The position numbers were made by a program, and so were the translations under genes. From Amoebophrya sp. A120 (Eukaryota; Protista; Dinoflagellata): DNA of 64,000 nt. Of this stretch, positions 1-63,560 are shown in pieces. The notes beneath the pieces were generated by a model. The model had not been told where the DNA came from and ran no database searches. It worked only from the letters and a program-made list of their open reading frames with translations. The DNA lies in NCBI GenBank assembly GCA_905178155.1, contig CAJINV010000018.1, forward strand, positions 1,096,609 through 1,160,608, given 5' to 3'. Numbering within the stretch: position 1 is the first letter of the stretch; the number at the start of each line of letters is the position of its first letter.

Positions 1-1786
1 GCCCCCCAACGCCACCGCTGACCGGGGTATCCTGAGTAAAAACGTACCCACACCAGAGTCAGGATGGGGATTTTGCAACACAAACCTAGGAGTTTTGTGA
101 GTCACGCATGACAAGTTGCACTATGCAGTGTAGTGCAGGTTAGCAAGTGCAGCCGCATCACAGATTCATCTGCTCATCGTGTTCATAGAGTCACAAATTC
201 CAAAACACGACTGGAAATGGCCCTCATGGGGATGCGCATTACAAGTCTTCCTGTCTTTGCAAATCTGCATCACAGCTCTGGCGTGGGTACGTTTTTACTC
301 AGGATACGGGGAGAGGGAAACTTCCGAAGTGCTGTTGGCGGTGTCGCCGTATGAAAGTGCACAACTTCTCCACGTTCTGATTTCTCATGCAAAATACCAA
401 CTCCACGCTCATGCAAAATACCAACTCCACGCTTCCCCTCCTATCACTATTATGCATGACAAGTTCATCTGGCAGCCCAAATAGAAGTACAATCTGTCAT
501 GCAAAACCTGCATATTAATTCCTGCTAACGATTGCATTGCTGCTCCTGCAATACAAATGAGGGGGGACGAGGTTGTGCACTGTGATACGTCGCTCGGATT
601 GTTTACTAGCCGGTTCGATGTCGAGGTACCTCCGCCCCGCGAACTTGGCGACGAGGGAACATGGATGTCCAGCGAAAGCCGTTTCCGCCCGTTGCTCGTC
701 GTGGCGGGCGCAGAGAGGTTGAGGTTCGATTTTTTCCTTGGGCTCGAGCTACTGGCCGCGGCGGCGGAGTTGCCCGTCAAAGTCGTAGCATTGTTGTACG
801 CGGACGCAGCTCCTTGTGCTGGTCCACCGTCATCGTGGACCACCTGCAGCGGATCTACCCGCCCGTTTATCGCAGTTCCTCCTGGTCCTCCTGCACTCAT
901 GTCTTCGTCGGACGAATTGGAGGAAGACATGCCAGGAATGAACGCGTCACTCTGTTGTTGTAGCTTCTGGCGCGGTATCCTGTGCAAAGGTATCGCACTC
1001 GTAGTAATCGCAGTCATGCATTACAAATCTCCTTCCCAAGGCAAATCAGCATGACAAATTCCATTTGTAATGCTGAGCGAATTTGTATTGCAATTACTAC
1101 TAGTACGATACTTTTGCAGTGCATATGCGGTTGTTCCGCTTCATCCGGACGACCCTCTTGGTCCTGCTGCTGCAACATGATTTTCGCGGCAGGAACAAAT
1201 CGAGAATTTTTATCTCCACCTGCTCGGTCCGTTGTTTTATTGAGATTGGCGAAATTATTTCTCGTCGTCGTTGTGCTACCACAATTTGACGCAGGAGCAG
1301 GAGCGCACGTAGTTGTTCTTGTTCTATTCCCTCGTCCCTCGCCCTCTAAGATTTTTAACGGCTGGTCTACTTCTAGCGAGGACGTCGAAGTGGGCGACAC
1401 TACAGTATCCTTTTGATAACGTATCAAGAGGAAAAATCCCCCCTCCCCATATCGGAAACGGAAGATGCGCGAATTTGTGATGCTGTATTTGAGTACACAA
1501 ATCGACTTGTATTGCTAGAAGGCCAAGAGACGAAGCTGCGGCCTAAATTGCAGGTAATCTGTCATGCTGTTTCCCACTTCCAGTTGCCTCCTGTCATCCT
1601 GGAACTGCAAGGCTTTCCCACACTGGACAGCACTACAGTCCGCATCTTTTGCCTTCTAGCATCACAAAGCTGATTTGTGACCACAAATCTGCATCACAGA
1701 TTTCCGTTTTGATATGGGGAGGGGGCATTTTTCATTGTAATATAACGCTGGCTCCGGGGCGAAGTCAGCAAGCAGCACGCGCACAT
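1..1786 (-). CDS. Multi-exon gene, low-complexity Ser/Thr-rich protein of unknown function; runs off the window 3' end, start uncertain (may extend to ~2890)
   Basis: Removing introners 1422-1742, 976-1125, 350-587 and 28-306, each with one DR copy, joins ORFs 1014..1427 and 409..1017 in frame (SQR|YQKD, EQP|RQKL, NPSD|DTANS, LSP|VSGG). Confidence 0.6.
28..306. mobile_element. Introner, family C
   Basis: TIR tatcctgagtaaaaacgtaccca / tgggtacgtttttactcaggata; DR cgggg. Confidence 0.9.
350..587. mobile_element. Introner, family F
   Basis: TIR tatgaaagtgcacaac / gttgtgcactgtgata; DR cgccg/cgtcg. Confidence 0.85.
976..1125. mobile_element. Introner, family D (150 bp)
   Basis: TIR tatcctgtgcaaaggtatcg / cgatacttttgcagtgcata; DR cgcgg/tgcgg. 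Confidence 0.88.
1422..1742. mobile_element. Introner, family B
   Basis: TIR with gaaaaatcccccctccccatatc / gatatggggagggggcattttt; DR taacg. Confidence 0.9.
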
Positions 1787-1904
1787 TGATATCAAATGCA
1801 AAAATGTCTGGGTCTGGAAGATTCTAAACTTGTCATGCTGTCTTTGGATTCCAAAAACATCTGTATTGCGTGACCAACAACAGGAGTCCAGTTTGTGTTA
1901 CGCG

Positions 1905-4529: not shown

Positions 4530-7500
4530 TTAGGCCTCCGACGAATTTCCCGACGACAGAGAAACGACCCCACTCGACGTCCCCACCGCTGTCTCATCTG
4601 CACTACTGGAGCTACAACCCCCTTCTTGTTCCTCCGCACAGGAAGTAGTGGCGTTGGTCATTAAGTTCTGCCCGATTCTCCCGTTTTTGTTCGCCATTGC
4701 GATTGAATACGGCGTCACTTGGTCGCGGTACTTCACGTCTAGCAGCTGGGTGAACCACACGCCAAAGTTCCCGATGTTGGGATCCAGAAAATTCACGGGA
4801 GCTTGCCGAATTTTTGCGTCTTCTTCCTAAAGTGTTTTGTATTTGAATACTTGCGTTCGTGTTTTTCGCTTCGTCCGTTCATCATCTTGCCCTCGGTTGA
4901 AAACGATCAACCGCAAAGGATTTTTTTTCCGCACCATGATTCACACGTGCTGGTGTGAACAAATAATATTTTCCAGATTCAGTGAGACCGCGTCCACGTG
5001 TGCATGCATGCAATAAAAGAAAAAATCATCATACATTCCATGTAAAAAATTATACCTCTTCCAAGTAGGTGGCTCGTGCAAAAATCGCCTTCTTCGTTTC
5101 TTCATCGTTTTCCGGTTGCAATAAATCCTCGTCATCTTCGGACGCTTCGGCCTCCTCTCCGAAATTCCTCGCGTCACTCAATGCCGTTAATTCCTCAATT
5201 CTCTTCGAGTGCAGCTCATCCGCCAAGGGGTTCACTTTCACCGGTCCCTATGACAGTGCACAACTCTCCATCCCCCTCATTTGTCATGCAAAATACCCAA
5301 TCCACGACTCCTTGCATCTTGGCACTGTTTGCATGACAAGCTCTGGTAGCCCAAATAGTACTACATTCCAGTGAGAATTTGTCATGCAAAACCGGCACTC
5401 TTGCTGATGCTTGTACTGCCGTTCATGCAATACAAATGAGGTGGAAGGGGAGTTGTGCACTCTGATAGTCCCTCCAGATTATCGATGATCTGGATCTTGT
5501 CGCGCCGCACCGCGAAGCCCTGGCTTTTCATATCAAATGTAAAAGTGTCTGGGTCTGGAAGAATGCAGCTTGTGATGCTGCATTTGGATTCCAAAAAAAT
5601 CTGTATTGCATGAGTACCAAAGGGAATGCAATTTGTGCTACGCTGAGAAGGCATTTGTCATGCGGAATAGGCATCAAGAAGCCCTCAAGAAATCTGTATT
5701 GCTAGGGTATGCATCACAGACATCATGGCTCATGCAAAACGTGCATGACAAGTGTCAGAATCTTCCAGACCCAGACATTTTTACATTTGATATTTCACTA
5801 TGCATGGCAAATATGCTGTCTGGGTTTGGAAGCTTCGGATGCTCATGCTTGTAATGCTGGTGTTGCATATACATATTGATTACCACTGAAATCTCCTGTC
5901 GTGCTGTGCATGACCAATAGAAGTCGCAGCCTCATCTGCTCTCGTCGTACAGAAATGCAAGCTCTCATGCGAGCTGCGTATCATGAGAAAGCGCTGGCGT
6001 TCTGCAAAATTGTATACTCTTGACTTCATTCGGTGGAAGTGTAATTTTCATCTTCATCGTCCACAGTTCTTCAGCATCACAAGTGGTTTCCAGACGTCTA
6101 CGACAGTAGATATTTGCATTTAATATTGACGCTGAAACTGTTGTTTTCTTCCTCCTCATCCTGGTCCTCTTCGAGGGTTTCTGCACTGCATTCCCTGTTG
6201 GAGTTGTTGTTTTTGGTTTCCTCCTCTGCCACTGGGTGGAAGAACGCAAATTCTTCTCGCTGTTGCTCCTCGCACAAATTCGTAATCTTCTTCGTCCCTG
6301 CTGCGTCCTCCTGACTATGGTCCTCTCCTGACGGAAACAAATCCCCCTGCGGTTCCTCGTCCTCGTCGTCCGCAAATTCGAGCAGCCCGCTGGGTAGATT
6401 GTGAATAGCAGACATAAGAAACATGTCGTTTCGTTTCTGCTGCTCGAATTCGTCCAGAATTCGGCTGCTATTACTGTACCTTTCGTCCTCGACCACTTCT
6501 TCTTTTCCACCATCGACACCGTCCACATTTTCACCGACCACACTAAAAGGATTTACTATGTTTGTTGATGTTGAGCTGCTGCTGTTAAAAACCTCTTCGA
6601 AGTAGAACCCGTCTTCCAGCAAATTTACGCGGGTCGCGGTCAAAGAGTCCGTTATCAAATGTAAAAGTGTCTGGGTCTGGAAGAATGCAAGATTTGTCAT
6701 GCATATTTCTCATGACCCATAATGCCTGTAATGCTTGAACTAGCATCGCAGACCTTTAGAGGGCTTCCTGATGCACCTTCCGCATGAGAAATGGCCTGTC
6801 TGTGTAGCAAAAACTGTACCCATTTTGCTGGTCATGCAATACAATTTTTTTTAGAGTCCAAAAACAGCGTGACAAGTTGCAATCTTCCAGAGCCAGACCC
6901 AGACATTTTTGCATTTCATATCCGTGGCGTTGCTCCCGTTCCCGATCACGGTACCCGTCAACGTCTGCGTTAGCGCGTCCGAGTTGGAGTAGGACAGCGG
7001 GGGGGCGGTGGTTTCCTTAGAAGAAGAAAGACTGTCGGAAATGTTGTTGGTCGTGTGCAACTTCTGTGGATTGGCTTTGCTGTTGTTGACCTCAGTCGAG
7101 GTTGTACAAGAACTACTACCTTTTAGATTATTGTCCTCCTGCTCTTTCAGCAACTCCACGACGTCCGCGAGGCTGCAGGTATCCTCCTCCTCCTCTTCCT
7201 CCTCGCCGTTCGGCGCAATGATCGACGCGGACAAACTCCCTGCCTGTTGCGCGTTCTTCTCTAATTGAAAGTACTCGCTTCCCTCTTTCGTGACAATCAC
7301 GTCGTTGGCGGGGATGATGATGGCCTTTTGCTGCAGCTCTGGTCCTGGTGCCGCTCGATTTTCGATCACTGATGACACCACGTGGTCACCCAACGCAACT
7401 TCCGGCCCAATCACTGTGGGCCGCGGCGCCAATGTCCCAGCGCGGCGGCGGGAGCTGCTGGTGGTCGTGGTATTCTTTCTAGAGGTGGGAGATGAAGTTG

Positions 7501-8532: not shown

Positions 8533-10624
8533 TTACATCAGCGTTCTATCTTCTGGTGTCCGTAAAAAAACTGTAATACACAGATAGTTAGAGTGCCACC
8601 TTTTTACTAAGAGCTAACTCGCTTGCTTTTGCACATGCAGTCCCTCTTCAATAATTTAGGTGAGTGTGGTGCACATCAAGTTCACACACCCACGTTGTTT
8701 CCAATGAAAAAACATCAAACTAGAAGTTCTTCCGCGGTTTTGATTGAACTTGCTAAGGTCTACCGATTCCGTACCACGTTTGCAAGAAGAAGAAGAAGAA
8801 GAAGGACCCTCATCCTCTCGGCGGACCAAAAGGAATAAATTTGCAAAACAAGTACCATGATGAAGCAGAAGCTTCTTTGATTTTGAGCTCAAGAACGTTA
8901 ACGTGATTGATTACCCGACCCTGACGGAGACCGACTACGTTTTCATCTCTGCTAGATTTGTACGTTAAACAAGACACTGAGAACGAGACAACCGAAAGCG
9001 AACCCCGTTAACTTCTACCTACTTTTACGATCCCCGCTTTGCGATCTTCCCCCCTCCCCCACCTTCTCTATCGGTGTAGCATGAAAAAGGTGTTGAAAAT
9101 CTCACTGACAAAACTCAAAAGGAACAAAAACAGACAAGTCACGACGAATGTTCTTTACTGACATTCATCAAGAACGAACAGGCTGTAAGTAAGTGGATGT
9201 GGAACAATCTTCAAACCGGCATGAGAAACTACAAGTCGCTTCCTAAGCTCCTGCAGCGTGGTGAAGCAGCCACCAGAGTGTGATTTTTATTGTGCATGTG
9301 GATGCGCAAGCGCCGCAAATAAAGGAAACTCAAAGTCATTTCGAAACAGTCCTGGTAGCATTCTTGTCCAGGTTGCGCGAAATTTAAGTTCGTCCAGGAG
9401 AACAGGTTCGTTGACTCCTAAATCCCTCTCGCCACACCTCTTTCTGATTAACAATGTAGTCGGGCAGGATATGCTTGGTTCTGTGAGGCGAGCTACTTGC
9501 TTCTATGCGGCAGTTCTTCTCACACCGGCTACCTATTTATGCACATGCGCAGGATATGCGGTCCTAGAGAAAAATCTTACTCTACAGTGGGTAAAATAGA
9601 GCAGGCTATGCATCTTATTTCCATCTTCAAAAGCTGCAGTTCATACTGAAGAGAGTGGACTTTTTGCATGGGTACGTAGTTGTCGGTGGCACCAAAAGGA
9701 AAATAAGAATTAAGAATGCTGCAAGGGTTCTGCGGGTCATAGAAAGTAAAGCGGGGTAGTTGTACGAGCGCAAATCCGAAAACGACTGGTCTCACCCATG
9801 GTGTATGGTGTAACGTAGATGCCCCCGCAGGTGCGACGTAAGTGTCTACCTACAGGCGCGCAGCATCAAATCCAAACTACAGGCGAGCACCGTCTTCGCG
9901 GAAATAAAGGTTTGTTGTTTATTTTTCGTTTGCTGGTACCTTCGAATTAGGAAAATTCAAAACAAAACTAAGAAAAATGCGACAGGTGGTTGCTGCTAAA
10001 GCACGATACTTTAGAACGGGAGCTCCTTCAAAGTCATATTCATATTTGTGATAAAAATAAAATCAAACGGAATAAAGAACAGAGACGTCGCCGCACCAAC
10101 CTAGACCAAGAAAGACCTAACCGGGCTACTAGACCCAGCCAAATCCTTCCGTCAACGGCTGTCCCGACAGTGCTTGGCAACAGTGGTGGACACTAAACGT
10201 TGCTGCGCTGCCCCAAATGGAACCCAGAACCACCAAAAGTTGCTGTGCTGCCAGTTTTTGCTTTCTGCATGCTGGTACTGCGCTTTCACTGTGAAATTGT
10301 AGTGCAACATTTTTTATCATACTGAGTTGCATTTTTGTGATTGTGTTTTTTGTTTTTATTTTTTTGCGTTTTTGTTTTTCGGAGCCGATATATATGTGTA
10401 AAAATGGGTTGTTGTAGCAACTACGGGTCAATGAACAACAAGAAGAAGAAAGTAAAACTGAAGCGCAAATAATATGAGGAGGACAACGTACCCAAGAGGC
10501 AACTCACCCATGGGGGATCAAAAAAAAAGTTTCAATTAGTGCCGGACTGGCCGGCAAAATACCTATATAAAATAGTTAATTGCAATAGCTAGGTGATTAA
10601 GTAGTTAGATAAGACGTTTTTTAG

Positions 10625-11444
10625 GGGTTGTAGGGTGCTAGATCGCCAAGTCCAGCTCCACGGATTCGCCTCGGAACCCTAGCAAAAAACCGAGGAAGCG
10701 CCCCATGGTGTGGCGTCTGTCTACTGCCCGCGCTTTCCATTGTGCGTGGCCTGTGGGAGATTTGGCGCAGCTAGCCGCATCCAGCGGATGGCTGACGACA
10801 AGCCGGCACGGTAGACACAAAAAGCCGCGCGCCCTGGTTATGAGAGAAGGCGGAGCAGCGTGCCATCGGCTGCCGAGGGGGGTTTCGCCAAAAAGCACCC
10901 GCAAGCCAAGTGCAACATGGCCCGCAGGCCGCGGCCTGCAGGGCCGCAGGCGAGAGGCGGGGGCGCGAGGGGGGGCCGCGGGAGGGGGTCCACACAGGGC
11001 CTCCCATAGGGCATATTTTTACCCCTAGCCCCGACGCTGTGGTCGTTTTGTCCCTTGCCAAAAAGGGGGCATCTCGGAGGGGCATCGCGGACGGGGATCC
11101 CGGACTCTCGTGTTGTCCTTTGTGAGGTCAATCTGCCCAGGTAGGAACACAACGAAGCCGGGGCACTTTGGGTAGCCTCACAAAATGGCTCCCAAGCTCG
11201 GCGGAAAGTGGCAGCAAGGCACAAACAAAACACAGAAAACGGCGGCAAGGTGCGACACGGCCGTCGCAACTACGTCGTCCTGCTGCCTTGCCACAGAAGG
11301 CTGGCCGCCGATCCTCTGCCCCCTGCGAACCTTCGTGCCCTATCTGCGCCAGGCCCTCGTGTGCAGTATCCCGGCGCCCCTGCGTGGAGACAACCGAGGC
11401 GAAGCCGTGGAGCTGGATATCGGCGATCTAGCACCCTACAACCC
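10625..11444. mobile_element. GC-rich non-autonomous TIR (MITE-like) element unrelated to the introner families
   Basis: ~50-bp TIR gggttgtagggtgctagatcgcc..tccagctccacggattcgcctcgg / ccgaggcgaagccgtggagctgga..ggcgatctagcaccctacaaccc; no TSD recognised. Confidence 0.75.
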
Positions 11445-11683
11445 TTTGAAAGCGTCTACTTTACATAGCTAATTCACATAAGGCAAGCTAGTGTATTTTA
11501 ACTAGCGAAATTACTTATGTTCAATTCGTTTACTGTGAAAAAAAAAAAAATTATCCCCTTGGGTGCGTTGCCTGTTGGGCACGTTGTCCTCCTCATAAAT
11601 AATAACTCGAAAGAAAAGATGAAGGCGAACGCTCTCCTGTCTTCGACAGTCCACGTACTTCGTCTTCGTGCAGCAACTCCCAA

Positions 11684-11995: not shown

Positions 11996-12963
11996 TTTGG
12001 CGCCAATCTTCCCGACGCAGTATGAATGGACAAAGCACGAAAGCGTCCCATGAGAATAACACTTTTTGAAACGCAAAAAAGTGACTTGAAAAGCGCAAGA
12101 GCCGAATCCTGTCACGACGATGGCTCTTCTTTGTCACGATGAATGAACCAGCCGCCCCCCGGCGGAGGCCGCCGGGGAGGGAGCGGCTGTTCGGGTGAGG
12201 CGTTCCGGCAGGGAGGGTGGAGCCAAGCGCTGCGCGCCGCTACGCAAACAAATAAAAGGGCCCGGCGGGTGGGGCCGCGCGGCTCTGACGCCTTTAGCCC
12301 AGAAGGCGCAGTGCGCGCGCGTAGGGATGCCGCCGCGGCCAGCGTTCTTTGTCTCTGAAAAAAGCAGAGCCCGGGGGCGGAGTTTGTTGGCTTTTTTTGG
12401 AGCGCGAGCATGCGCGCCACATCATTCAATCAGAACGCCAAAGAGCGGCATTATTTCTGCCTAGATGCGCACCCTGAGAATGCGAAGAGCCTGCGAAAAG
12501 TATGGGTGTCCTTCGGTGTGAACCGACCGAGAGATGCCCGAAGGCCCAAAATTTTCAAGAGTCCGAAGGCTAGTCTGCCCACGAAAAGTAGCGAACTTGG
12601 ACAAACAGCGAGGCTTGCACGTGCATGCGAGGGCTCGCGAGCTATGCGCCGAGAGAAAACGCTCACGAAACCTCTCGCACTAATTTAGCCACAACAGCTT
12701 TCACGGCACTACAAATGCGCCGCATCTGTTGCCCGCGCGCGCTGGGGCGTTAAATGAAGTGCGGCCACCCGTGGCGGCCGCCCACGCTAAGGAGCGGCGC
12801 CGCGCCCCCTCGGGGGGGACGCTGAGCGGCGCTGTCACTCAATGTCCAAATTCTATTTTTTTTTCATCATGGCAAGATTCGGCTTTTGCCTTTTTAAAGT
12901 CCGTTCTTTCCGTTTCAAGAAAAGTCAGTATCTTTTTGGCGAACTTTAGTACTTTGTCCAATC

Positions 12964-13447
12964 ATACGAGGCAGCTCATTGGGTCTATACACACAACTGT
13001 TGTATTAAAGGTGCGCCCATGATACGGGATATAGGAATAGGAGGTCCTCCCTTCTTCATCTTCTGCGTCGCCTTGCAGGAATGCAACCGGTTCTCCCAGG
13101 CCATTGAAGGACTGCATCTTCTTGCTGGTGGGCATTTTACCTGCAGACGGTGGTCAGAAAAAATCTATCTGAAAAAAAAAAAATAGAAACAGCAGTGAAC
13201 TTCGTGGCTCAAGCAAAATTGTAAGCATAAGCATCCGCTACCAAAACAAAAGCTATACAATACCTGCCCGGTCCTCCATCATCTTGGAGGTGCGCGGGGA
13301 ATGGACGATGCCAACCGCCCCCCCCCCCTTCGCGACCGACTTCTCCGCCATCTTCTGGCCGTTGACGTTGTCCTCTTCCCCGGCCTGCTTCAAAGCGGCG
13401 GCGGCAACCTGCGCCCCGGCGAGCAAGGTGGTAGTCTTTTTCGGCAT
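12964..13447 (-). CDS. Small putatively secreted protein, two exons, 3' end uncertain
   Basis: MPKKTTTLLAGAQVAAAA N-terminus; GT-AG intron ~13142-13263 continues as KMPTSKKMQSFNGLGEPVAFLQGDAEDEE. Confidence 0.4.
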
Positions 13448-14454: not shown

Positions 14455-17400
14455 TCATGCTCCTTCCAACTTCTGCAGACACTCCGTCACGAACACTTCC
14501 CAAATCTCCAAGGAGAAAAGCTCCATACGTTCCTTCGTTGTGAATCGATCAAAGAGTCGAGCGGCTAGGAGGGAGCAGGTGTTTTCTAAGCGGTTCCGGT
14601 CCTGATCATCCTCGTGGCCGTGATCATCTGCAGGCTCTGCAGTGCTGTCGCCCAGATCTTGATCCAAACAGAACCCTGCTGCGCCAGCTGTACTATCAAA
14701 AGAAACCCCCGCTGCCTCGAACTTGTTACGGAGAATTTCGATTTCCACCTTCTTCGCCGCGAGGCGCAATTTTAGCTGTTTCCTTGCTCCTTCAAGATGC
14801 GTGGTGGAGGTTGAGTGCAGCTGCAGCGACGTTTCTGATATAATTATACTCGCAGGATCTTTTGCATCCACGACTACTTCCGCCTTCTTCCCTTCCGGAG
14901 TAGCAGAAGTAGTCCTAGCATCGAGAGTGTTCGTTTTCTCGTCCCCGTTAGTTTCTTCCGCTACTACCAAGAAATTATCCGTACCCACTTCTACTGTCTG
15001 CTTTTCCCTCGGCCTCGGCGAGACTGCGTCTACTGCGGCGTTGACTTTGGGCTTCGTCCTGTTCCAAATAAAACCCCCAAAGAACTTATCCTCCATTTCC
15101 CTCACGGCGTTGCACGGGGCGCGCTCCTGCTCCCGCAGCCAAATTCGCTCGAAAAAATACCTCGGAAAAAGCTGCGACTGCAGCAAATGTTTCAACCGTT
15201 CCAAGAAATTAACCTGCAGATCATTGACCAACTCTGTGCAGTTGTTTTGCGTCAGAAGAAGATTGTCGAAGTAGGTTTCGAAATTGAATCTTCCGTTGCC
15301 CGTACGCATTTTCTGCACACCAAAATCTTCCTTGCCACTAGTTACAGTGTGGTGCTGGCAGATGGTACCACCACCACCAGCTGCACGACCGTTTTGATGG
15401 TTTTCTCGCTCCGGATCGTCTTTCCTGTAATTCCGACCCCAGTTTTCACTGACGAAAAATTCCCCTCTCACGTTCTCCACCAGATGTGCGTAGTCGCGCC
15501 ATTTGTGCACTATCTTCTGCCGCATCGCGTCCAGTGCGTCAGCAAGGAGCAGAAGTTTGTCTTCCCACTTTTCCAGACGAGCTTCCCATCGCTCGAGGAG
15601 GAGAAAATTCAAATCATTTGTACCCCTGCCATTAATTCGTAGCTCCCCTTGTAGTCCCGCACGCGTCGCGCCCCCACTCGTCTCCGTGGTTTTCTCAGAG
15701 AGAAGAGGTTGGGTAGTTTTTGTAGTTCTTCTAGCATCACAAACATCAGCGAAGTCTTCACTTTTCTCTTGCTGTTGGTGCTCTCGTCCGGCAGCACAGT
15801 CGCCAAACATCTTTCCCAAAATGTTGATCTCTTTCCGAACGTAAGCCAGCGCTTGCCTTCGCAAAGCGGCGATAGTGCAAGGCGAGTTGAAGTTCTGCGA
15901 ACAGACTGCCGTAGTACTTGCTGGTGGACCACCTTCAAGTTTCATATTCACAGAAGATCCGCCGTGATCTTTTATTCCTCCTGTCGCAAGATCAAGATTC
16001 TGCTCTGCGGAAAAGTCCCGCTCCCAGTCTGGTAAGACAAAGGCCCTCACCCGCTCGGCAAAGGAAAAGCAGATCCTTTCTATCTCGGCTATTTCCCCCG
16101 CTAAAATCGCGAAAGGGCGAAGCGAAGCAGATCTGGTGTCGCTCGTGCGACTCGGCGTGGGCACGGCAAAAGTATGTCCTGCAAAAGGTCCTCGTCCGGC
16201 TGACCCCCCGGAGCCAGCGCTAATCGCATCCGCACTGCCATTATCAAATGCAAAAGTGTCTGGGTCTGGAAGATTAGAACTTGTCATGCTAAATCTAAAT
16301 GATGCAAAAATCTGTGTTGCGTGAGTGCCAAAAGCTGTCTGCTTTTGACCAAGTTGAGAGGAAGTTTCCCATGCAGGAAAGGCATGATAGAGACCTCAAA
16401 GAATCTGTCATGTTGGGTCTCGCATTCCAGACCTCATGGGTCATGGAAAACCTGCATCACAAATCTTGCATTCTTCCAGACCCAGACATTTTTACATTTG
16501 ATAGCCATCCACTTCCACCTCCACGCTGGTGCCACTGCCTTCTGGATATGGAAGCGTCAGGATTGAAATCGTCAAAGTCGAAAAAATTTGTGATGCATAA
16601 AATGCAACCCACAAAGTGTCTGCATTGCAGAGTTGGCAAGGGAGGCAGATTGTAAGCCTGTTGAGGGGTAGAAGTCGAGCTGCTAAAGTAGCATGACAAA
16701 AGGCGTCTTCCTTACCCGAACAGCATTACAAACTGGATTCAGGCACCACCAAAATTTGTCATGCGCCACTTAGAAACTGGGTTCCAACTGGCATCCATTT
16801 TATGCATGACAAATCATCTCAACTTTGTCGATTTCGATCCTGACAGTTCCATACTGGAAAGCTGTAGGGTAGTGCTGTCTCCTCGGACCTTATCGGCACG
16901 ACTCTGCAGCTCCGCAGCGCACCTCCGGGGCCGTACTGGAAAATGTCGTGCACAAACACCTCTTCTGTCTCGCTCGTGTTGCGGCTGTTCTTGTCGTTTT
17001 GGTTGTCCCTTTCCATTTTTCCCTCATCCTCATCTACTTCCCACTGCACCAAGACTTTACTACGGTTATGGTTTTGCGACAACAGCAGCAGCTCTCGTGG
17101 AGGGGACGAGGAACTAAACGCGCCAGTGCCGTCTGGTATGACTCCGTCAATACTCCTGTTTGGCTCCACCCCCGCCGTGTGCTGATCAACTACATTTATT
17201 TGCCGCGGATCATAATGAAGATTCGCTCGGATTTCTGGCCGTGCAATGATCCGTCCAGGCTTGTAGCAGTACTGCTTCACTTTCGCTTTCGCGGCAGCCG
17301 CCGTGGTTTGGTTTTCATCTCCGGTGGTCTCTTCGTGACTTCTAATTTTCGCAGCAGCAGTCGTCGTGCTGGCGGCAACGTGCAGTATTTTCCGTCGGAC

Positions 17401-30502: not shown

Positions 30503-34821
<4,319 letters not shown>

Positions 34822-47939: not shown

Positions 47940-48398
47940 TATTAAAATGAAAAATCCCCCCTCCCCATATCAAAACGGAAATTTGTGATGCTAAAACAAC
48001 CGCACCGACATTGCCATTGTCCAGCATAGCTGAGGAGGCAAGCCTCCACAGGCTCCGGAACGGCATAGGGTCAGAACCGCGAAAACATCGCGAGTATTTC
48101 TTCATCCCCGGGCACTCTTATATTTGTGATGCTGATTTGTGGCCACAAATCAGCTCTGTATTGCAGGGAGGCACGGCGGCCAGATCCCCAGGCTAGGTGG
48201 GGGCGTATGGGTCTAGTTGCTCAGCATGGCAAACGGCTCCCCTTTAGGCCCAACAGAATGACAAATCGCTTCCATAATGGGGCGGAAGCTTCTGCCAATT
48301 CTTGCAAGACAGATGTGATTTGTGACCTCAAATCCGCAACACAAATTTTTGGAAACATACCTTTTCAATATGGGGAGGGGGGATTTTTCTTCACGATA
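47940..48398. mobile_element. Introner, family B, just downstream of the dynein light chain stop codon, with a nested 129-bp insert
   Basis: Family B TIRs; no matching 5-bp DR; insert 47993-48121 flanked by an atttgtgatgct duplication. Confidence 0.8.
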
Positions 48399-48407
48399 GT
48401 CAGTCTC

Positions 48408-49291
48408 TTACACCTTGTAGAAGAGAAACGCGTGCTGGCCAATGTAAAATATAACCCGCTCAAGCGTTACAATCTCAAACGTTACAATAGAGTCTGGAAT
48501 TTGTATTGCATGAAGAGCGAGAGGAACGCAGAGAGAATCGAGCTTTTCGCAATACAAATTTTGCCGGATTTCAGGTGGGTCGGGGACTCCGAAACTTGTC
48601 ATGCACAACCCTATGGGAGTAGGCCAACTCATGCAGTTCTTGCATCACAGATTTCGACATTTTATTGTAACGTTTGAGATTGTAACGCTTGAGCCAGTCA
48701 TATAAAAGTAGATGAATTTCTGCTTTTCGTGCACGCAGTAGCTCCCGAAACCCTTGCCGCAGACGATGATCCACCCGAGACCCCACTTCTCGTCGAAGTG
48801 CTCTTTCAGTGCGCTGCAGATCTCTGCTCCGTCCTTGTCTGGATTTTTCCTGACAAAGTTTTTTGTTTTTTTTTGCTTCTTCAGTGCATAGATAAGTAAT
48901 CACAACACAATTGCTTTTATGATGGTCGTCGCATGACATGTTGCGCTCTGCAAAATCTGCAAAACGGAATCAACTTGTACCCCTCCAACTGTGCCATTGC
49001 TTGGTGAACTGCATCGTGCATGCAGTCGTCCGGCATATCCGATGGCCAGAGGATCCGTGCACCCGATTTATGCAGGAGGTTGCAAAAACCATTTCAATTT
49101 CTCATGTGATTTGCAGCTGATGTATCAGAATTTCCAACAGAAATGCAAATACGTTCAGGAAACAGGTATGCTTGCGGCTGACGTTGGGGTTGTCTTCGCA
49201 TGCGCATGAGAAATGGCATTAAACATTTTTTGCAAATTTCGTAACAGAGTGTGCGGAACTCCTCCTTTACTGCGTCCTTTTCCTGGGCCAT
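48408..49291 (-). CDS. Dynein light chain, LC8 family (5' exon and start uncertain)
   Basis: ILWPSDMPDDCMHDAVHQAMAQLEG|KNPDKDGAEICSALKEHFDEKWGLGWIIVCGKGFGSYCVHEKQKFIYFY|IGQHAFLFYKV; GT-AG intron 48850-48980. Confidence 0.85.
48450..48702. mobile_element. Introner, family I
   Basis: ~40-bp TIR tataacccgctcaagcgttacaatctcaaacgttacaata / tattgtaacgtttgagattgtaacgcttgagccagtcata; DR taaaa. Confidence 0.88.
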
Positions 49292-50029: not shown

Positions 50030-53000
50030 TCACTTCGTAAACGCTCCCATCTGGTTGTAAAGTTGCTGTAACACCAAATTTTGCTGCTGCAGCACATTTT
50101 GATAGAGGGCCTGCTGCACCTGCTGTGCACTTTGCTGCGTAGAAGAAGTTGTCGTGGCACTGTTCTGGTTCTTCCCGCCTGCGCCTCCTGCCGCCATCGG
50201 CGGTGGAGGCCCCCAGGAAGAAGAATTATTGTTGCTTCTGCCTAAGCCCTTGTTCGGATTGCCAAGCGGAATGTCATTCGAGCCCGTCGCGGAGTCGTGC
50301 ACGCGACCCTTTGCAGAAGTCGTTGTTCCCTTTTTGTTTTTACCAGAAGTGGTGGCACTATTACCGAACAAACCGCCGTTTCCTTTGGATGAGTTGTTAT
50401 TTTTAGTTCCTGTGCTGCTCTTGCCACCACCGGCACCACCGAATTTGCCTCCACCGCCCCCAAGCGGTATGTCGTTGGAGCCCGTTGCCGACTGGTGGAC
50501 GTTGCCTTTGCCTTTACTCGACGACTATCCTGTGTAAAAACATCCCCACCCCAGAGTTGTCATGCTAAACAAAATGCGACACACTTTGCCCCCCCAGAGT
50601 TGTCATGCAGATCTGCAAGCACAAGAGCATTTGTAATGCGCATCCCCATGATAGGCATTTCCGACCGTGTTTTGGAACTTGTAATGCTGTAAACAGGATA
50701 AGCAACTGGATTTGTAATGCGACTTCCGTTGCTATACTGCACTACTACACTACAGCCCGCAATTTGTCATGCGTGACTCCCAAAACTTCAAGGTTTGTGT
50801 TGCAAAATCCCCATCTTGACTCTGGGGTGGGGACGTTTTTCCTTCGGATAACGACGTCCCTTTGTTCATCTTTCCACCCGCAAAGGTGGAATTGTTCCCT
50901 TTGTCATTTCCCTTTTTCACACCGCCGCCTTTGCTGTCTTTCCCGCCATTTTTAGTATTTTTGCTACTCTTATTTCCTCCGCCACCAACCACCATGGAAC
51001 TTGTCCCATACGGACCGGACCGAGCATTTTTACCTGCTGGTGCACTGCCTTTACTATTCTTCGCCCCCTTCCCACCGAAGGAAGCCCCGGAACTTCCTCC
51101 TTTGAAGTTGGAAGACTTGTTATGGAAGCGTCAGGATTGAAATCGTCAAAGTTGAAATAATTTGTGATGCATAAAATGCAACCCACAAAGCGCCTGTCTT
51201 GCAGAGTAGGCAAGGGAGGCATATTGCAAGCCTGTTGAGGGGTAGAAATGGAGCTGCTAAAGTAGCATGACAAAAGGCGTCTTCCTTACCCAAACAGCAT
51301 CACAAACTGGATTTAGGCACCACCAAAACTTGTCATGCGCCAATTGCTAACTGGGCTCCAACTGGCATCCATTTTATGCATGACAAACTATTTCAACTCT
51401 GACGGTTTCAAACCTGACACATCCATACTTGTTGTTATTTCCGTAGAACCCACCTCCGCTTGATGAACTGTTGTTATTCATCCAGCCGCCACCCCCGCCC
51501 CCGTATCGAAAGAAAAAAGTTCGTCACGATCACTCATGCGCATTTTTGCAATACAAAATTTTCTGTCATGCGTAACAATGCATCACAGCCAAACTTTACA
51601 AGGGATTTCCCTAGTGTTTCTGCAATACAAGGAAAAGCTGTGATGCTAAATGAATTTGTAATGCAAAGCCTGCAAGTTAGTGACTGTGACAAACTTTTTT
51701 CTCTCCATACCCCGTCTTTCGGCGCGAGTATGTGCCGCACGTTGTCCAGGTTCCCTTCCAATCTGCGAAACTTGTCTTTGAAAACTTTGATGTTTTCCGT
51801 CACGACAGTGTCCTTCGAATTCACTCCGTCCGAGATCTGGTTGCACTGCTTTTCCATGTACGCACGGATCTTCGGGTCCACCAACTCCGGCACGGACCTC
51901 TGCACAATGTCCAGCACCGCCAGGCCCAAACCGGTAGGGACGAGGTGGCGAGACTTCGGCCACTCTCCAGACTTCAGTTTGCCTTTGTTCATGCCCTTGG
52001 TCTGATGATCATGATTTGCGAGAATTTGTCATGCGAAGCAGCTTGATGGCCTGGCGGCTCATAGTCAATTTGCATGACAAATCAAGTATTAAAAATTGTC
52101 GGTCTCTTTTCAACTGCTTTTTCATGTCCCACAACGACACGCTGGCGCTAGGTGCAACTACTGCAACTGCAAGAGATAATGTGATAGATAATTGTATGAA
52201 GTAAGTACTTCACTCAAAGCATTAGATAACTGCACCGAATCAACGAGAAGATCATGAAACAACCTGAAAAATAAAGTACCATGACTCTCGGCCCCGCTTC
52301 CTTGCTCCCTTTTTCACCCGGGCCGCAAACGCTGACGTAGTTCCGCACACATATGTTTTCGATATGCCCTGCCATACTTGCGTCGGTCCCAATCCCGTTC
52401 TTATCCATCAAGCCGACCAACTCCGATTCTGACAGAAACTGCGGGGGCTCGGTGAAGGTTTCCGTGCTGGTTAGCCGGAGGTTCGAGAATCGGGTGTTTT
52501 TCGCCAAGTAGTGGCTTTTCAGCAGCTGGCAGTTGTTGTTCGTCAGTGTGTGGTTGCTGAGCACTTTCAAAAACTTCCCCTTGTGCTCGCACAGGTGGAG
52601 GAAGGAATTCTGCCACGCGGGAGAGCTGGAGTTGCTATTGCCGTTGGATGAATAATTGTTGTACGACGACGAGCCACCTCCTGGTGCTCCACGATTGTTG
52701 TAGGAAGATGCGCCCCGATTCGTAGTTGATGTGTAGTGGTCCCGAGCCCGACCTCCAGTTGGGACCAAATAGTGAAAGACCGCTTCGAAAGTATTCTCGC
52801 TGTCCGTGCTGGTGTTTTTACCGCTGTTGTTATTTGATCCATACCGACCGCCTCCGCCCGCTTCATCCAACCTTGCCTTAGCGGTAAATTCCACGTACTC
52901 GATGTCGTTAAACAGCGACGCGATGTATCCTGTGCAAAAGTATCGTACTCGTATCAATGCAAGGCTTGCATTACAAATCTTTTTCTTAACGTAAATCCGC

Positions 53001-56000: not shown

Positions 56001-59000
56001 GCATATCGCGGCGGACTCTCTGGATTTGCCTTCTGGCAAGACAGACAGGATTTGTGGTCACAAATCTGCATCACAAATTTTCGGAAGGACATCTTCTCAA
56101 TATGGGGAGGGGGGATTTTTGCTTTTGATATGCACTGCTTGTTTGCCTCTTTGAAAAAACCGTTGAACTTATCCCACAGAAAAAAGCAGGCAGGTCATAT
56201 TTGTAATGCAAAAATAAATACACAAAAAAATACGCATTGCATATCCTAAACAGCATGCTATGGGGCTGCCCATGACAGAGCTTTTTGTGTATCAATTTTT
56301 GCAATACAAATATGCCGTGCCTGCTTTTTTCTGTAGGATAGAACTCAAAAGTCGGCACGCCCTTCGACAGCGTGCCGCGCTTCTGCCACGGGCCGTTGGC
56401 GGACGGGCGGTAGCTCGGGTTTAAGTGCTCCGCAAGAATCTATTGGTAAATTAGAGTACTACGCATGGGTAGAAACCGATTCGTAGTTGTTTCTAAAAAT
56501 AGAACTACTTGATGCAGATGCAAGTATCGTATTTCTCAACACAAAGAACGAAAGGACCAGGAGATGAAAATGTACGTAAAATACTGATGTGCGCCGTCAA
56601 GTTGTCAAAAGCATTCTCAGGAGCAAGGTATACGCAAGTATACCTTTGCGATCGAGGGTTTTTCTGCGACCATGAGCACGGTTGGTTTCTTGTTCGGGTC
56701 CAAGCTCCGGACCGCTTGTGCCTTTTCCTCCTTCTCCTTCTTTTCTTCGTGCCACCGACTCAAATAGAAGTAGTGCGCGAGGTAGTTCCCCCTACGGTAA
56801 AGCTGTTCCGCCGCTCGCGCATCGTAGTTAACGTGCATGGCGCAGTCGCTACTAATCAGCGTGTCCTGCTCGAGCGTGGCGTCGAACTTCGGCGGGTCTT
56901 TCGTATTACAATGAAAAACGCCCCCACCCCCGAACTTGGGAGCATTTGCATTGCAAACCTTTCCAAATGAAACATTCGCCCTCTTGCATCTATCAGCATC
57001 ACAGGTTTCCAATCGTTAATAGCAAAAATTTCTATTGCAAAAGACCCCAGCAAGAGCGGCCCTTTTCATCATGCAAGCGATGCGATACACGCCTACACTC
57101 TGCATCAGAAAGATTCCTACTCCTTTCTTGCATGACGAAAAGTTTTCATGGGGGAACTTCGCATCACAAATTTTTGAAATTTCAGGGGTGGGGGGCACTT
57201 TTCACTGCAATATTTCGCGTTGTGGCTTTCGTCGGTGGAGAACGTGTCCAGTAATTCCCCCATCAGGGTAAACCCCTCGAAAATCTTGCCCAGGGATTTC
57301 CCCTTCGCGCCCGTCGCTGGGTTGTATTCGACACACTTATCTAGCATGTCCGGCGTGGCAAAGTGCGGCCCGCAGAAGAAGTTCTGCAGCACTTGGGGAA
57401 AGGTTCTGCTCACCGGGTGGTTCTGGAGCTTTTCCCAGACGTCCTGCCCATTTCTGATCCGCCGATGGTTACTGTAGTTGTGGCTCTCAAAGTTTCCGTT
57501 ACTCGCCCGGTAGTTGTGGAAAATCTTCGGCTTGATGTTGCTGTTGGTGACCACTTTGTTCAAGGATGAAGACCCCGCGTGGCTCCTTTCAACTACAGGC
57601 GCCGCACTGCTCAGAGGCCGGAGAGAGAACGAGGACCCTCGCGCAGCACCAGCACCTACCGACGCTGCTGCATTATCTCCATGTGTCGCCTTGTTCGCAA
57701 AAGTGGAAGCTGCTCCTGGGACGATTAGGGGAGCTATCGCTTTTGCAACGGGTGGTCGAAGACCAAGCTCGGCGCTTCCGGAGGTCGCTGCTCGTTGAGA
57801 GATAATTCTACTTGTACTTCCAGTCGGCGCGGCGGGAGGGTGATGCTCTTGTTCAACAAATGCAGCACGATCATCGTGTTGCTCCTGGCCTTCTTGCGCT
57901 GCTACATCTTCATCCTCGTAATTCTCGATCTCGTCGTAATTTTCCTCCTCGTCGTTCATCATGTACCGGTCTTCACCCAGGAAGTTCTGCCTGTTATATT
58001 CGTCATCTGAGTCCTCGTCTTGCTCCTGCCCGGGGTCGTCCCCGCCGACGTAATTCTCGCCGTCTTGCTGTTGATCCGCGTCCTCCTCCTCGTCTTCCGG
58101 CCCAACCCCAACGTCAAAAGGGTCATCCGGCATGTCGCGTACTTGATTCTCCTCGTAGTTCATTTCATCCTCGTTGTACTTTCCGTTGTCGTAATTGCCC
58201 TCTGGGTCGTGGTCATTCCAATCCGCACCATCGGCATCACCATGCCCCTCGTAATTGTCGTCTACCTCTGCAGTAGCATTCGATGCTGGTGCAGGTGCAC
58301 CAGCGCCCTTTGTTCCAAGATGATTTTTACCGATGTCTTCACCACCTCTTGTCGTCGTGGCCCTCGCCTCGGCTGCGTTAGTACGTGGTGCTATCGCAGG
58401 CCGTGAAGGGCCACTGCTGCTACTGCTCGCCATCTGTGACGACGTTGTCTGCTGCTGCGCGGTCAGCAAGGGACTCGCGCCGGAGGCCTTCGAAAAAGCG
58501 CCCGCTTTAGAAAACACGCCAGCGCCAGCTTTGGGAAGAGATGATGTACTACAACTTCCGGTAGTAGTGGTTGGCACACCTCCTGCCGTTGGTCCTCGCG
58601 GAGGTAAAGGTCTCAAGCCACTCGGCTTCAAATCGGCGGGCGAGGATCTTGATGGTCCTGTTCCTGGAGAGGAATTGGCAGCATGATTCTGTTGACCATC
58701 AAGCTCCGACATCTTTTTCCCAAAAGACCCAAGCGCTGTAACCGCCGCTGGTGGTGGTGCACCACCAGCCGATTTGCTGTTGGTTTCACGACCTCCTTGG
58801 ATCTCCGACAATTTTTTCCCACCTGAAAGTGGCTTGAGGACCACCGAATTTGTACTAGTAGCCGCACCAGGTCGTGTAGTTTGTTGAAACGCCGAAGGAA
58901 TGCTCCCAGCACCTCCGTTTAGTTTCGCCACGGGAATGATGGGCGCCGGCGGGGGGCTATCCAAGACAAAAAGATTGTAGGTGTAACTTTTTTGGAGGAA

Positions 59001-60480: not shown

Positions 60481-63400
60481 TCACGGCACGAGCAGAAAAT
60501 CTGCGCCGAAGAGCTTCGCTATGCAAGAGAAGAACTGTGTTAGTGTAACTTTCGTTGGCTGACAGCATCACAAATTTCCTCTACATGACAGAGAAAATCT
60601 GTCATGCGTGGCTTGCAAGGGAAAACACACATGAAAAGAGGACTCCATGGTTGTTTCGCATGACAGGTGTAACTCGTGCTGCATGTTCCGCATTTTTGCA
60701 GAGTTACACTTACACAGTTTTTTTCTTGCATATCCGCGGCGCAGCGGTCGTTATTGGCTTGGGAGGAAAACCCGTGAACCATGTTCGCGACCTCGTTCAG
60801 CCTGTTTAGCAATGACTCGAAGAATTCCGTGAACTCCGCGTATTTGCTATCGTAAGGAAAAATCCCTCCTCCTCATATCGAAAAGGCGCGCTTTTCAAAA
60901 TTTGCGATGCTGATTTGTGGCCACAGATCGAGTCGGTCTTGCAACCGAGCAAAGCCAGAGCTTCCGTCGCATTTCGCAGGCGATTTGTAATGCTGCTGCG
61001 CTAATGGGGCAGACATCTGCCATGCTAAGTAACTACCTAAGCCACCCCTTTCCGGGCTTTGTATCTGCCTGCAGTGCTGTACTGCAAGACAAATCTGATT
61101 TGTGTACGCAAATACAGCATCACAGACTTCCCTTTCGATATGGGGAGGGGGGATTTTTCCTTTTGATATTTGTCAAAGTCTTCCAACGGATCGGGCTCTG
61201 CGACGAAGTAGTAGGGCCCTTTAGATTTCGGGAAATCTACCCCGTTTATCATAAGGAAAAATCCCCCCTCCCCCTATCGAAACGGCACGCCTCGGAAAAT
61301 TTGTAATGCGGATTTGTGACTACAAATCGCGTCTGTCTTGCAAGAAGGCAACTCCACAGGTTCCACCGCATTATGCCGGCGGTCTGTGATGCTGGTGAGC
61401 CTAGAGCATAGACGTTTCTCATGCTAAACGCCTACGCCAACCCTTCTACTCAGGCGCGACATGGGCTCGCAGTCCTTCACTGCAAGACACAGCTGATTTG
61501 TGTACGCAAATCCAGCACCAGAAACTTCGTTTCGATATGAGGAAGGGGGATTTGATTTTTTCTTCTGATACCATTTGAGTGGATGCTCTCCTCCTCCACC
61601 CGCCGATATCCTAAGCCGAACAAAACTTTTCTCGCCGGCAGACAGTTGCCAAAGTCGTTCTGGAAGTCTTTGTTGTCCAAGCGTAGCACGTTCGGGTGCT
61701 CCTCGGGCCTCTTCGCCAGTGCTTCCGTCAACTTCCGCAGCGCCGGTAGGCGGTCTTGCTTGAAGCTCTGCAGACTGTTGGACCGCAACAGTTCCGAAAA
61801 ACTCTCGTTCAGCAGCTGGCGGCTGCTGGTCCCCTTGGACCGCTGCTTGTCCGCATCCGCGAGCAAAACCCAATTTTGCTCTCGCTCCATCATCTGCGCT
61901 TTGTCGTACAGCGCGGCTTCTTCGGCGAGCCGGAGGAGTTCGTTCGCCTTGTCCCGCTTTTCCTTCTCCTCCGCCAGTTCCTTCTCTCGTTTATCCCACA
62001 GAAAAAAGCAGGCAGGTCATCTTTGTAATGCGAAAATGAATACACGAAAAATCTGTATTGCGAAGCCTAAACAGCATGCTATGGCGCCGCCCATGACAGT
62101 GCTTACTGCGTATTTATTTTTGCATTGCAAATATGTCCTGCCTGCTTTTTTCTGTGGAATATCGTCTCTGCAGTTCCAACGCCTGCTGCCGTTCCGTGGC
62201 CGTCTGGATTTCCGCGCGCGCCCGTTTGTTTTCCTCCTCCTCGGCCAATTTTTGCCGTTTCTGCCTCTGCTGCTCCCGCTCCCTCTGCTTGGCGACTTCC
62301 GGATCTTGTTCGGACTCGAGGATGTACGTCCGCAGCTCTTGCCGCAACAGGTGCAGAGCTTTTTCTGCTTGTTCTTCATCCCCATTTACTATTCGTGTAC
62401 TGCTCGCCCCGGCGCCGGCGATTTTGATGTTGCCCTCGCTAGAAGTACTGTGGTCCCGCCCGACCTCCATAGGCATTATATCTCCACCGTCTCTGATCTC
62501 CTCCACGCACAGCAGCGTCTCGATTTTCCCTTTTAATATTTCCCAATCCGCGCACAGTGCGAGCACCTTCTCGCTCATCGCGGTGCCGTAGGTGGCGTGG
62601 GAAAGGAGCCGCTCGTACGTCTGGTAGTCTGCATCGGTGATATTAGAACTTGTCGCCTTTTTAGTACCCGTTGTGTTGTTCTGCTGCGACTCGCTTCTTG
62701 TAGCTTCCCGCACCTCCTCCGGCTCATGTTGATCAGTGGGCGCAGGATGGTTTTTCGCCCTCTGCTGTTCTTCTTTGTCCTGTTGCTGCTTCTCGAAGGC
62801 CTCTTCAAACTTGCTTTCCTTCTCGAAACCGTACTTCGACAGCAGTCTATCTACGTATCCCCAGCAAAAACGTTACCACCCCCGAGTTGTCATGCAAATG
62901 CCGAATGACAGGAACATATGTAATGCGCCTCTGCATGACAGGCATTTCCAATCGTGTTTTGGCATTTGTAATGCTGTAAATAGGATGAGAAAGTGGCTGT
63001 CTCATGCGGCTGCGCTTGCTAACCAGAACTACACTGCAGATGGAAACGTGTCATGCACAACTCCCTTAACTTTGAGATGTGTGTTGCAGATTTACTAACT
63101 TGACTATGGGGTGGGGATATTTTTGCACGGGATACTACGTCCTGCCGTGCGTGGGCCTTTTCCCGCATTGCGCGGAAGTCCGTTTCGTGAAAAAGCTATC
63201 AAATGCAAAGATGTCTGGGTCTGGAAACTTGTGATGCAAGACAGTCAATAACAAATGCACTGTAATGCGCCGCCAAGCATGACAGTTTTTTCGTGCTTCT
63301 GTGCTGCGTCTTCCGGATGAGAAACTGTGTTTTTGCATGACAGGCGAGAGAGGCTGTTTGTGGCCACGCAATACAGATTTAAGGGCCATGCCAGATCAGC

Positions 63401-63560
63401 ATGACAAGTTTCGCAATCTTCCAGACCCAGACATTTTTGCAATTCATAAAAGCAACCGCAGTTGCTGCTTCTGCTCCTCTATTGCTTGGAGCGTCAGGTC
63501 TCGCTGCTGCCATGCGTCCACCGCGGACCGGGCCTTTTTATAAATGGAGGAGGAGGCCAT
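60481..63560 (-). CDS. Coiled-coil protein with a probable C-terminal PUB-like domain
   Basis: Continuous frame from MASSSIYKK after removing 6 introners; LRKLTEALAKRPEEHPNVLRLDNKDF...VLFGLGY...EPDPLEDFDKY resembles PUB. Confidence 0.7.
60520..60732. mobile_element. Introner, family L
   Basis: TIR tatgcaagagaagaactgtgttagtgtaact / agttacacttacacagtttttttcttgcata; DR ttcgc/tccgc. Confidence 0.85.
60848..61168. mobile_element. Introner, family B
   Basis: Family B TIR; DR tttgc/tttgt. Confidence 0.88.
61247..61570. mobile_element. Introner, family B
   Basis: Family B TIR; DR ccgtt/ccatt. Confidence 0.88.
61992..62161. mobile_element. Introner, family E
   Basis: Family E TIR; DR tcgtt/tcgtc. 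Confidence 0.88.
62856..63134. mobile_element. Introner, family C
   Basis: Family C-like TIR; DR ctacg. Confidence 0.85.
63197..63448. mobile_element. Introner, family A
   Basis: Family A TIR; DR aaagc. Confidence 0.9.

Follow-up and report, generated by a model that had tools for sequence, protein, structure and literature searches.

The introners described from the genome of the dinoflagellate Amoebophrya sp. A120 are 100-350 bp long, lie in co-oriented genes, have non-canonical junctions with direct repeats (5 bp in the legend of Fig. S19), and carry an inverted repeat that begins with TAT, about seven variable bases and at least three A (PMC7789003). Their spread and their GT-AG-free removal are left as open questions in that paper, the available text of which describes terminal inverted-repeat and direct-repeat motifs only. 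Internal protein-binding sites are known from other mobile elements: transposase binds the subterminal motifs of miniature inverted-repeat transposable elements (MITEs) cooperatively (Emigrant/Lemi1, PMC1636448), and the spacing of TnsB sites follows the helical pitch of DNA (PMC10201428). Here we analyze 64 kb of the A120 genome (contig CAJINV010000018.1, positions 1,096,609 to 1,160,608; "the window"), in which 62 introner-like elements with different terminal inverted repeats (TIRs) share an internal site of about 14 bp set at fixed distances. We consider it probable that the motif is a phased array of double-stranded DNA binding sites for shared mobilizing machinery, either an integrase-like transposase or a helper.

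The element set was obtained by a search for inverted ends with flanking repeats, followed by curation by eye; elements were found in part by their TAT. They are 143-459 bp long, except one that reaches 1,038 bp through an insert, and total 16,228 bp, with 47,772 bp of the window remaining. Each element reads TAT...ATA, and TAT is followed by a variable stretch (bases 4-10), an A-tract (bases 11-15) and a family-specific TIR core; in a family-weighted terminal logo T1, A2 and T3 score 1.00, 0.99 and 0.98, and A11-15 score 0.67-0.89. The target-site duplication (TSD) is 5 bp, with an identity across 60 elements of 0.92 at this length versus 0.27-0.29 at 3, 4, 6 and 7 bp. Host genes are on the minus strand, the elements are inserted in either orientation, within families too, and deletion of each element plus 5 nt restores the minus-strand reading frames, for example one of 2,723 codons spanning eight elements. 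Among the domains encoded by the exons are those of topoisomerase, Rad17, dynein light chain and cathepsin. The elements are at once introns and non-autonomous TIR transposons. They have the terminal TAT inverted repeat and A-tract, the junction direct repeats, the non-canonical removal from RNA, the size, the co-oriented genes and the repetition in families of A120 introners, and, judged by sequence, appear to fit the published description (PMC7789003, in its available text), that is, an already known kind. Identity as TA-target MITEs (Tc1/mariner) and ciliate-type TA-bounded DNA excision were both rejected, given the duplication of 5 bp of free sequence and DNA run X1, which has depth 0 at both listed RNA joints.

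A scan of metagenomes with the family-A TIR yielded 170 distinct loci (L001-L170), all from one assembly. They hold 339 further elements, of which only five exceed 420 bp. The elements of the loci are up to 95-98% identical to the window copies, and the loci have no exons in common with the window. The loci reproduced the motif slots of the window families and supplied new families.

The full site reads AAAYYTGT[C/G/A][A/T]TGC[A/T/G] (AAAYYTGTVWTGCD). TGT[CGA]ATGC occurs 101 times on the plus and 101 times on the minus strand (202 in total) versus 7.2 ± 2.6 expected from 30 order-2 Markov simulations. An earlier note on this DNA had claimed that the motif, in four variants, is common to about 11 TIR families and rare elsewhere, and had named a lack of enrichment over other non-coding DNA as grounds for giving the claim up. 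It is borne out. Interior similarity sorts the elements into 12 groups (A1, A2 and B-K) plus a single decayed copy, and 221 of the 226 matches to the four variants lie within elements (13.6 per kb), leaving five outside (0.10 per kb). When six variants are counted, 252 of 261 matches lie within elements; the nine outside (0.19 per kb) occur at about the uniform-chance rate, and two of them belong to an element relic. Every one of the 62 elements carries at least one site (mean 4.1), and the three GT-AG introns supported by RNA joints carry none. The variable core base is T in merely 15 of 1,425 sites. The array and the families are listed here by window coordinates, with strand where one is assigned and with site positions in bp followed by direction (> or <).

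28..63448, both orientations: array of the ~14-bp site AAAYYTGTVWTGCD, core TGT[CGA][AT]TGC, 252 core matches in 62 TAT...ATA elements.
5531..5792, no strand: family A1 (grouped by sequence), 262 bp, sites 42>, 74>, 90<, 129<, 183<, 214<; other copies start at 1790, 6653, 16242, 19176, 32439, 32787, 34132, 35365, 37756, 38867, 55478 and 59249; RNA joints for copies 1790, 5531 and 6653.
46102..46353, no strand: family A2, 252 bp, TIR core as in A1, sites 41>, 72>, 105>, 125>, 164>, 211<; others start at 19515, 22054, 30980, 33783, 36460, 38072, 45775, 53922 and 63197.
41494..41804, no strand: family B, 311-325 bp, with the first site 43-44 bp in at one end and, through an 11-bp indel, either 43-44 or 54-55 bp in at the other; others start at 1422, 19829, 22970, 33114, 39200, 43082, 47940, 55809, 60848 and 61247; RNA joints for 1422 and 47940.
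28..306, no strand: family C, about 280 bp, sites nearly all in one direction, RNA joint; others start at 26611, 27146, 35718 (decayed ends), 50526, 53366, 54753 and 62856.
976..1125, no strand: family D, about 150 bp, outward-facing sites 34<, 52<, 69>, 100>, RNA joint 971->1127; others start at 41282, 46400, 52926, 53165 and 53728.
31862..32031, no strand: family E, 170 bp, sites 32>, 63>, 99<, 130<; others at 56170 and 61992.
350..587, no strand: family F, also 5249-5467, RNA joints.
16547..16853, no strand: family G, also 51121-51427.
22355..22563, no strand: family H, also 58958-59167 and 60520-60732.
48450..48702, no strand: family I, first sites 53 bp from one end and 52 bp from the other, RNA joint.
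51504..51709, no strand: family J, sites 122>, 138<, 154> in 16-bp alternation.
56904..57212, no strand: family K.
5799..6125, no strand: decayed A-like element adjoining 5531-5792, RNA joint jointly with this neighbor.
52020..52090, minus strand: relic of family N8 with two intact sites, 63/70 identical to L072:3266-3500.

The 70-bp relic sits in a canonical GT-AG intron (52002-52279) and adjoins its 3' end. In the copies at 47940-48398 and 50526-50850 a left-end segment is duplicated or extra.

The earlier note had described sites every few tens of bp in both orientations. Both orientations do occur; the loose scatter does not hold, since site slots are fixed within family alignments. A same-direction pair of sites 31-33 bp apart is present in nine of the 12 window families (null mean 1.8, maximum 7 in 5,000 simulations), and a look-elsewhere control reached nine families in one of 3,000 simulations. 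For the window and loci together the pair is found in 14 of 16 families (null 2.2, maximum 8 in 3,000), or in seven of eight when families are merged to lineages. Gaps of 30-33 bp make up 79 of 163 adjacent same-direction gaps in the window and 350 of 819 in the loci. A family of about 110 bp from the loci (the mini family) has just two sites, in the same direction and 32 bp apart.

The sites are also placed at set distances from the element ends. Counted from the terminus, the first site to face inward sits at about 33, 42 or 53 bp across families with unrelated TIR cores, and the bins 31-34, 40-45 and 52-55 bp take in 81 of 85 ends in the window and 409 of 441 in the loci. The end distances are in phase at 10.5 bp (R = 0.85, P = 0.00015; 10 lineage-collapsed values from eight lineages), and related families are offset by about one helical turn: 44 vs 55 bp in B, and 42 bp in N8 of the loci (first sites 42 and 43 bp from the ends), which is related to family I, vs 53 bp in I. 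For adjacent sites the phase score reaches 0.55-0.56 at 10.3-10.5 bp, compared with 0.22 at 11 bp. Near both ends the motif recurs at constrained, helically phased distances, except that some of the gaps are out of phase. At some termini, bases 3-16 themselves look like a site facing outward, and 38 ends score as full sites. Within the first 35 bp, the highest score belongs to an outward site at base 3 (-2.8 vs -7.0 ± 1.1 for shuffled sequences, maximum -3.4 of 300), and the next outward site follows it at 30, 31 and 33 bp in D, N16 and the mini family.

The core of the motif is conserved. In 48 window copies, departures from the consensus amount to 4.9% at core positions vs 24.6% at other interior sites, which disposes of the concern, raised in the earlier note, that the motif might decay as fast as the flanking element sequence. 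On trees of nine families, core changes number 316 on terminal and 47 on internal branches, and changes at other sites 3,634 and 1,786 (odds ratio 3.3); relative to background, the core changes at 0.39 on terminal and 0.12 on internal branches. The variable motif bases give an odds ratio of 0.96, that is, no such contrast. The terminal core rate, 3.0% per site, is about half the mismatch rate of the duplications (23/300 positions). The contrast between terminal and internal branches is what a filter on propagation would give, a reading to which it lends moderate support only. Core decay is alike in copies with perfect and mismatched TSDs (4.5% vs 5.1%), an uninformative comparison.

These observations suggest how the array might work. 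At these spacings, proteins bound to the sites would share one face of the B-DNA helix, some three to five turns away from where the cut is made, and each end would be built into a paired-end complex by several subunits, in the manner of TnsB at the ends of Tn7-like elements. Copies with a retained array would be the ones to propagate, and sites would decay after insertion. The earlier note's proposal of a recognition code for one trans-acting factor finds support at the DNA level, from the 31-33 bp spacing, the phasing to the terminus, the strand symmetry and the stricter conservation in lineages that leave descendants. The TA ends of the elements and their short duplication of free sequence make an integrase-like DDE transposase, from the neighborhood of Ginger, GingerRoot and IS3EU, the likely catalytic enzyme. 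For the protein that reads the sites, the transposase itself would be our candidate, at somewhat less than even chances; a shared helper acting with family-specific transposases is nearly as likely, and is put forward tentatively. The resemblance of terminal bases 3-16 to an outward site hints that the binder also sits at the terminus, and therefore leans towards the transposase. A bolder, speculative version is that a single integrase-like protein, perhaps host-encoded, reads the 14-bp word on a helical lattice anchored at the terminus and in this way mobilizes the majority of A120 introners, which number tens of thousands, irrespective of TIR. The family-specific TIR core would then need only to be self-complementary, as an RNA clamp for GT-AG-free excision (1 nt before TAT, 4 nt after ATA); the mobility code (the DNA lattice) and the splicing code (the hairpin ends) would be separate modules, and the 110-bp element with two sites would be a minimal mobile intron.

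If the sites form such a DNA array, the continued spread of introns said to be without a transposase would be explained. A shared, phased DNA site is a concrete bait for the mobilizing protein, and TAT ends together with the lattice provide a rule for picking an autonomous partner as well as a design for a minimal mobile intron. The data also suggest that very few recognition codes may suffice for the ~2,000 published "families".

Several observations weigh against a mobilizing array. A Pfam scan of 69 of the 138 long open reading frames in the loci, a sample far below 1% of the genome, detected no transposase or integrase, and no autonomous element was found there. The available text of the genome paper reports no transposase in A120, and argues that its absence rules out general transposase-mediated mobilization (PMC7789003). 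TAT elements with 5-bp duplications but no motif exist, so these ends also function with one or more further recognition codes. The adjacent gaps are fitted at least equally well by a 16-bp lattice (0.64 at 16 bp, 0.53 at 8 bp), the nine same-direction gaps outside 30-33 bp (18, 20, 39, 39, 48, 49, 49, 51 and 54) are not zero-phase (mean cosine -0.06), the end distances do not distinguish 10, 10.5 and 11 bp, and outward first sites show no significant phase (P = 0.27). The 31-33 bp pair is mostly missing in families F (window copies), I and N8. The families are possibly of shared ancestry, and the loci were caught by the family-A pattern in a single assembly. The terminal resemblance rests on A1, A2, D and N16, and neighboring offsets score almost as high. 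Lastly, a star-tree simulation with uniform constraint gave an odds ratio of 2.45 without any propagation filter (1.15 for a two-level tree), so part of the contrast between branches may be an artefact; this is why we rate its support as moderate.

A scan of viral contigs with the family-A TIR pattern gave no match. One element of the loci, L026:505-1608, is a TAT element of 1,104 bp flanked by a 5-bp duplication without mismatch; its cargo is GC-rich and repetitive, and motif sites are confined to one of its ends. It is the sole one of the five elements above 420 bp that was translated, and its one scanned open reading frame has no Pfam match.

Removal from RNA was followed in contigs of runs marked "RNA?", from one sample; the same contigs skip GT-AG introns. 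All ten of the tabulated joints over single elements skip precisely the element plus 5 nt. The copy at 47940-48398 is removed as 464 nt despite only 2/5 matching repeat letters, and the whole 1,043 nt of the introner at 1790-2827, with its 775-bp insert, is skipped. The adjacent elements 5531-5792 and 5799-6125 (window 5526-6126) are skipped together (599 nt = 267 + 332), and 1,017 nt are skipped over the five elements at 52921-54177, by subtraction of piece coordinates. Where duplications are mismatched, the number of left-copy bases kept is at least 1 (976), at most 2 (350, 12021), and 1 or 2 (47940); a piece end at 54747 suggests that at most one is kept. From these five or six informative junctions, the cuts on the transcript fall 1 (at most 2) nt 5' of TAT and 4 (at least 3) nt after ATA. 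The intron on the transcript therefore appears to be N-TAT...ATA-NNNN, an asymmetric cut with N-T starts. There is no preference for AG at the inferred 3' cut (13 of 151 elements in the loci, one of 60 in the window). Template switching by reverse transcriptase as the sole origin of the joints was judged unlikely, since the reading frames need the removal and 47940-48398 matches in 2/5 repeat letters. Under the inferred cut rule, the joint 599-nt skip leaves a single-base exon between the two elements or implies an ordered removal.

Two elements with the same ends and without the motif bear on these questions.

12021..12966, no strand: motif-less TAT...ATA control, 946 bp, 3-of-5 target duplication, removed from RNA.
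10473..11597, no strand: another TAT...ATA element lacking the motif, 1,125 bp, 5-bp duplication without mismatch, 3' of a stop codon.

The 946-bp control has no site at 8 bits or above. It is skipped as 951 nt (a single contig, depth 4.6, 63 nt on the short side), and its removal restores a reading frame of about 229 codons. It has only TGTCACGA look-alikes, which differ from the core at two positions and, by eye, lie about 89 and 111 bp from the left end. RNA coverage did not span the second element, which thus bears neither way on splicing. The spliced control separates the question of splicing from that of mobility: removal from RNA would depend on the terminal hairpin and the TAT/ATA ends, and not on the motif. 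Both elements are ~1-kb and GC-rich, and the TGTCACGA-type look-alikes are possibly a second recognition code. The longer one contains an inner inverted repeat (10596-10647 / 11422-11473).

That the motif acts as an RNA signal, read by a splicing or excision factor that defines or enhances the removal of these non-canonical introns, seems to us improbable. It is true that all 62 short elements carry the motif, that U1 snRNA was not detected in A120 and the splicing mechanism is unexplained (PMC7789003, available text), that the spliced control has the look-alikes just described, and that core changes still run at 0.39 of background on terminal branches and at 0.57-0.58 in the closest pairs, leaving room for some host-level selection. 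However, the control is removed as element plus 5, the element with the 775-bp insert and the decayed element are likewise removed, and the three GT-AG introns with RNA joints have no site. The direction of the sites on the transcript is balanced, 140:139 in the window and 294:257 in 151 elements of the loci (strand inferred from reading frames), and on single-stranded RNA it is hard to see what a fixed phase to the terminus would mean. The suggestion in the earlier note that the motif is the real intron-definition signal is not supported, given that the control, with no site of at least 8 bits, is removed with the same geometry (one contig, depth 4.6). A shared-ancestry relic, in which modules were copied or recombined, or sites for a general host DNA-architecture protein, in either case with no role in mobility, is an unlikely explanation as well. 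A1 and A2 do share an arm, I and N8 share a TIR, and several 32-bp linkers have a weak reverse half-site at their midpoint. Against it, the linkers are unrelated between families (identity 0.31 vs 0.74 within families) yet the spacing is kept, the core is five times better conserved than other interior sites, and site density outside elements is at chance level.

The earlier note also offered nested pairing, with motif copies folding each element (as RNA or single-stranded DNA) into a long hairpin; this is largely refuted, and we give it very little weight. Compared with shuffled sequences, the interiors of B, E, G and N8 fold better (z about -4 to -7); A1, B, E and G have their sites in mirror positions, and in some families 40-90% of core bases are paired core to core. 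But of 292 inverted site pairs, 124 have complementary variable bases vs 127.0 expected, so mirror sites do not covary, and T is avoided at the variable base, which pairing would not need. Predicted core-to-core pairing ranges from 0.09 to 0.94 by family and is low in C (0.09), H (0.16) and N16 (0.12); nearly all sites of family C point in one direction and therefore form no nested pairs, and the mini family has only its two same-direction sites. Mismatches within the TIRs are not biased by transcript strand: G-U vs A-C counts are 50 vs 42 in the window and 133 vs 118 in the loci. An Rfam search returned no matches, so that neither covariation nor Rfam marks the elements as structural RNA. Pairing between sites is a by-product in some families and is not supported as a general role.

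Subterminal arrays are a known kind of structure, as are the elements themselves. Further comparable subterminal transposase sites are those of the hAT element Hermes and of CACTA TnpA, and Tn7 and Mu make 5-bp duplications, as do the elements here. The ends of Tn7-like elements and CRISPR-associated transposons (CAST) share with ours a short terminal signature, several protein sites per end, asymmetric ends and spacing by helical pitch; according to the available text, those elements are bacterial, long and autonomous, have TG ends and pair one element with each cognate site (PMC10201428), whereas one site here is common to at least 16 families of eukaryotic mini-elements that double as introns. 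The MITE sites of Emigrant/Lemi1 are alike in being internal motifs repeated in both orientations of non-autonomous elements, cooperative binding being established on the MITE side. In the text available, Emigrant motifs copy part of their own TIR (PMC1636448), while the present motif is common to unrelated TIR cores at a fixed step of 31-33 bp. Among 38 of the 58 A120 rows of a published supplement, family 38 is listed as "Ginger" with "5-bp TSD, TA/TA Termini", and has homology to long terminal repeat (LTR) element sequence (PMC12130899). Our elements share TA...TA termini with that family, GingerRoot and IS3EU, and the 5-bp TSD with family 38. GingerRoot and IS3EU usually make 6-bp duplications (PMC6839031, PMC10045372, as far as available), and the elements were therefore not filed there. 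GingerRoot TIRs are 100-150 bp, the word "subterminal" is absent from the available GingerRoot text, and the window elements have no coding sequence. Ginger2/TDD, with TG...CA termini and 4-5 bp TSDs, agrees in the TSD and differs from the TAT...ATA termini found here. In euglenid non-conventional introns a TIR hairpin joins the ends, and the junctions are likewise non-canonical with TSD-like repeats; their terminal code is CAG/CTG, and the available text describes no internal array (PMC11282704). Searches for the motif or for any internal introner motif returned nothing relevant among the papers listed, and one site common to at least 16 TIR families on a fixed lattice appears to be without a report in the literature searched.

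Some minor features were also recorded. The 775-bp insert (1891-2665) ends on one side in a (TAG)n run, has a 14-bp duplication, and resembles the 3' part of a non-LTR retroelement. Raw RNA run X9, with the same species label, contains sequences that match family-A ends at 99% or more with foreign flanks and covers none of the window exons; it is possibly from another strain that shares the family. Near the start of the 2,723-codon frame, a stretch of ~65 bp is apparently duplicated, by eye, ~840 bp apart (~24590-24655 and ~25430-25495).

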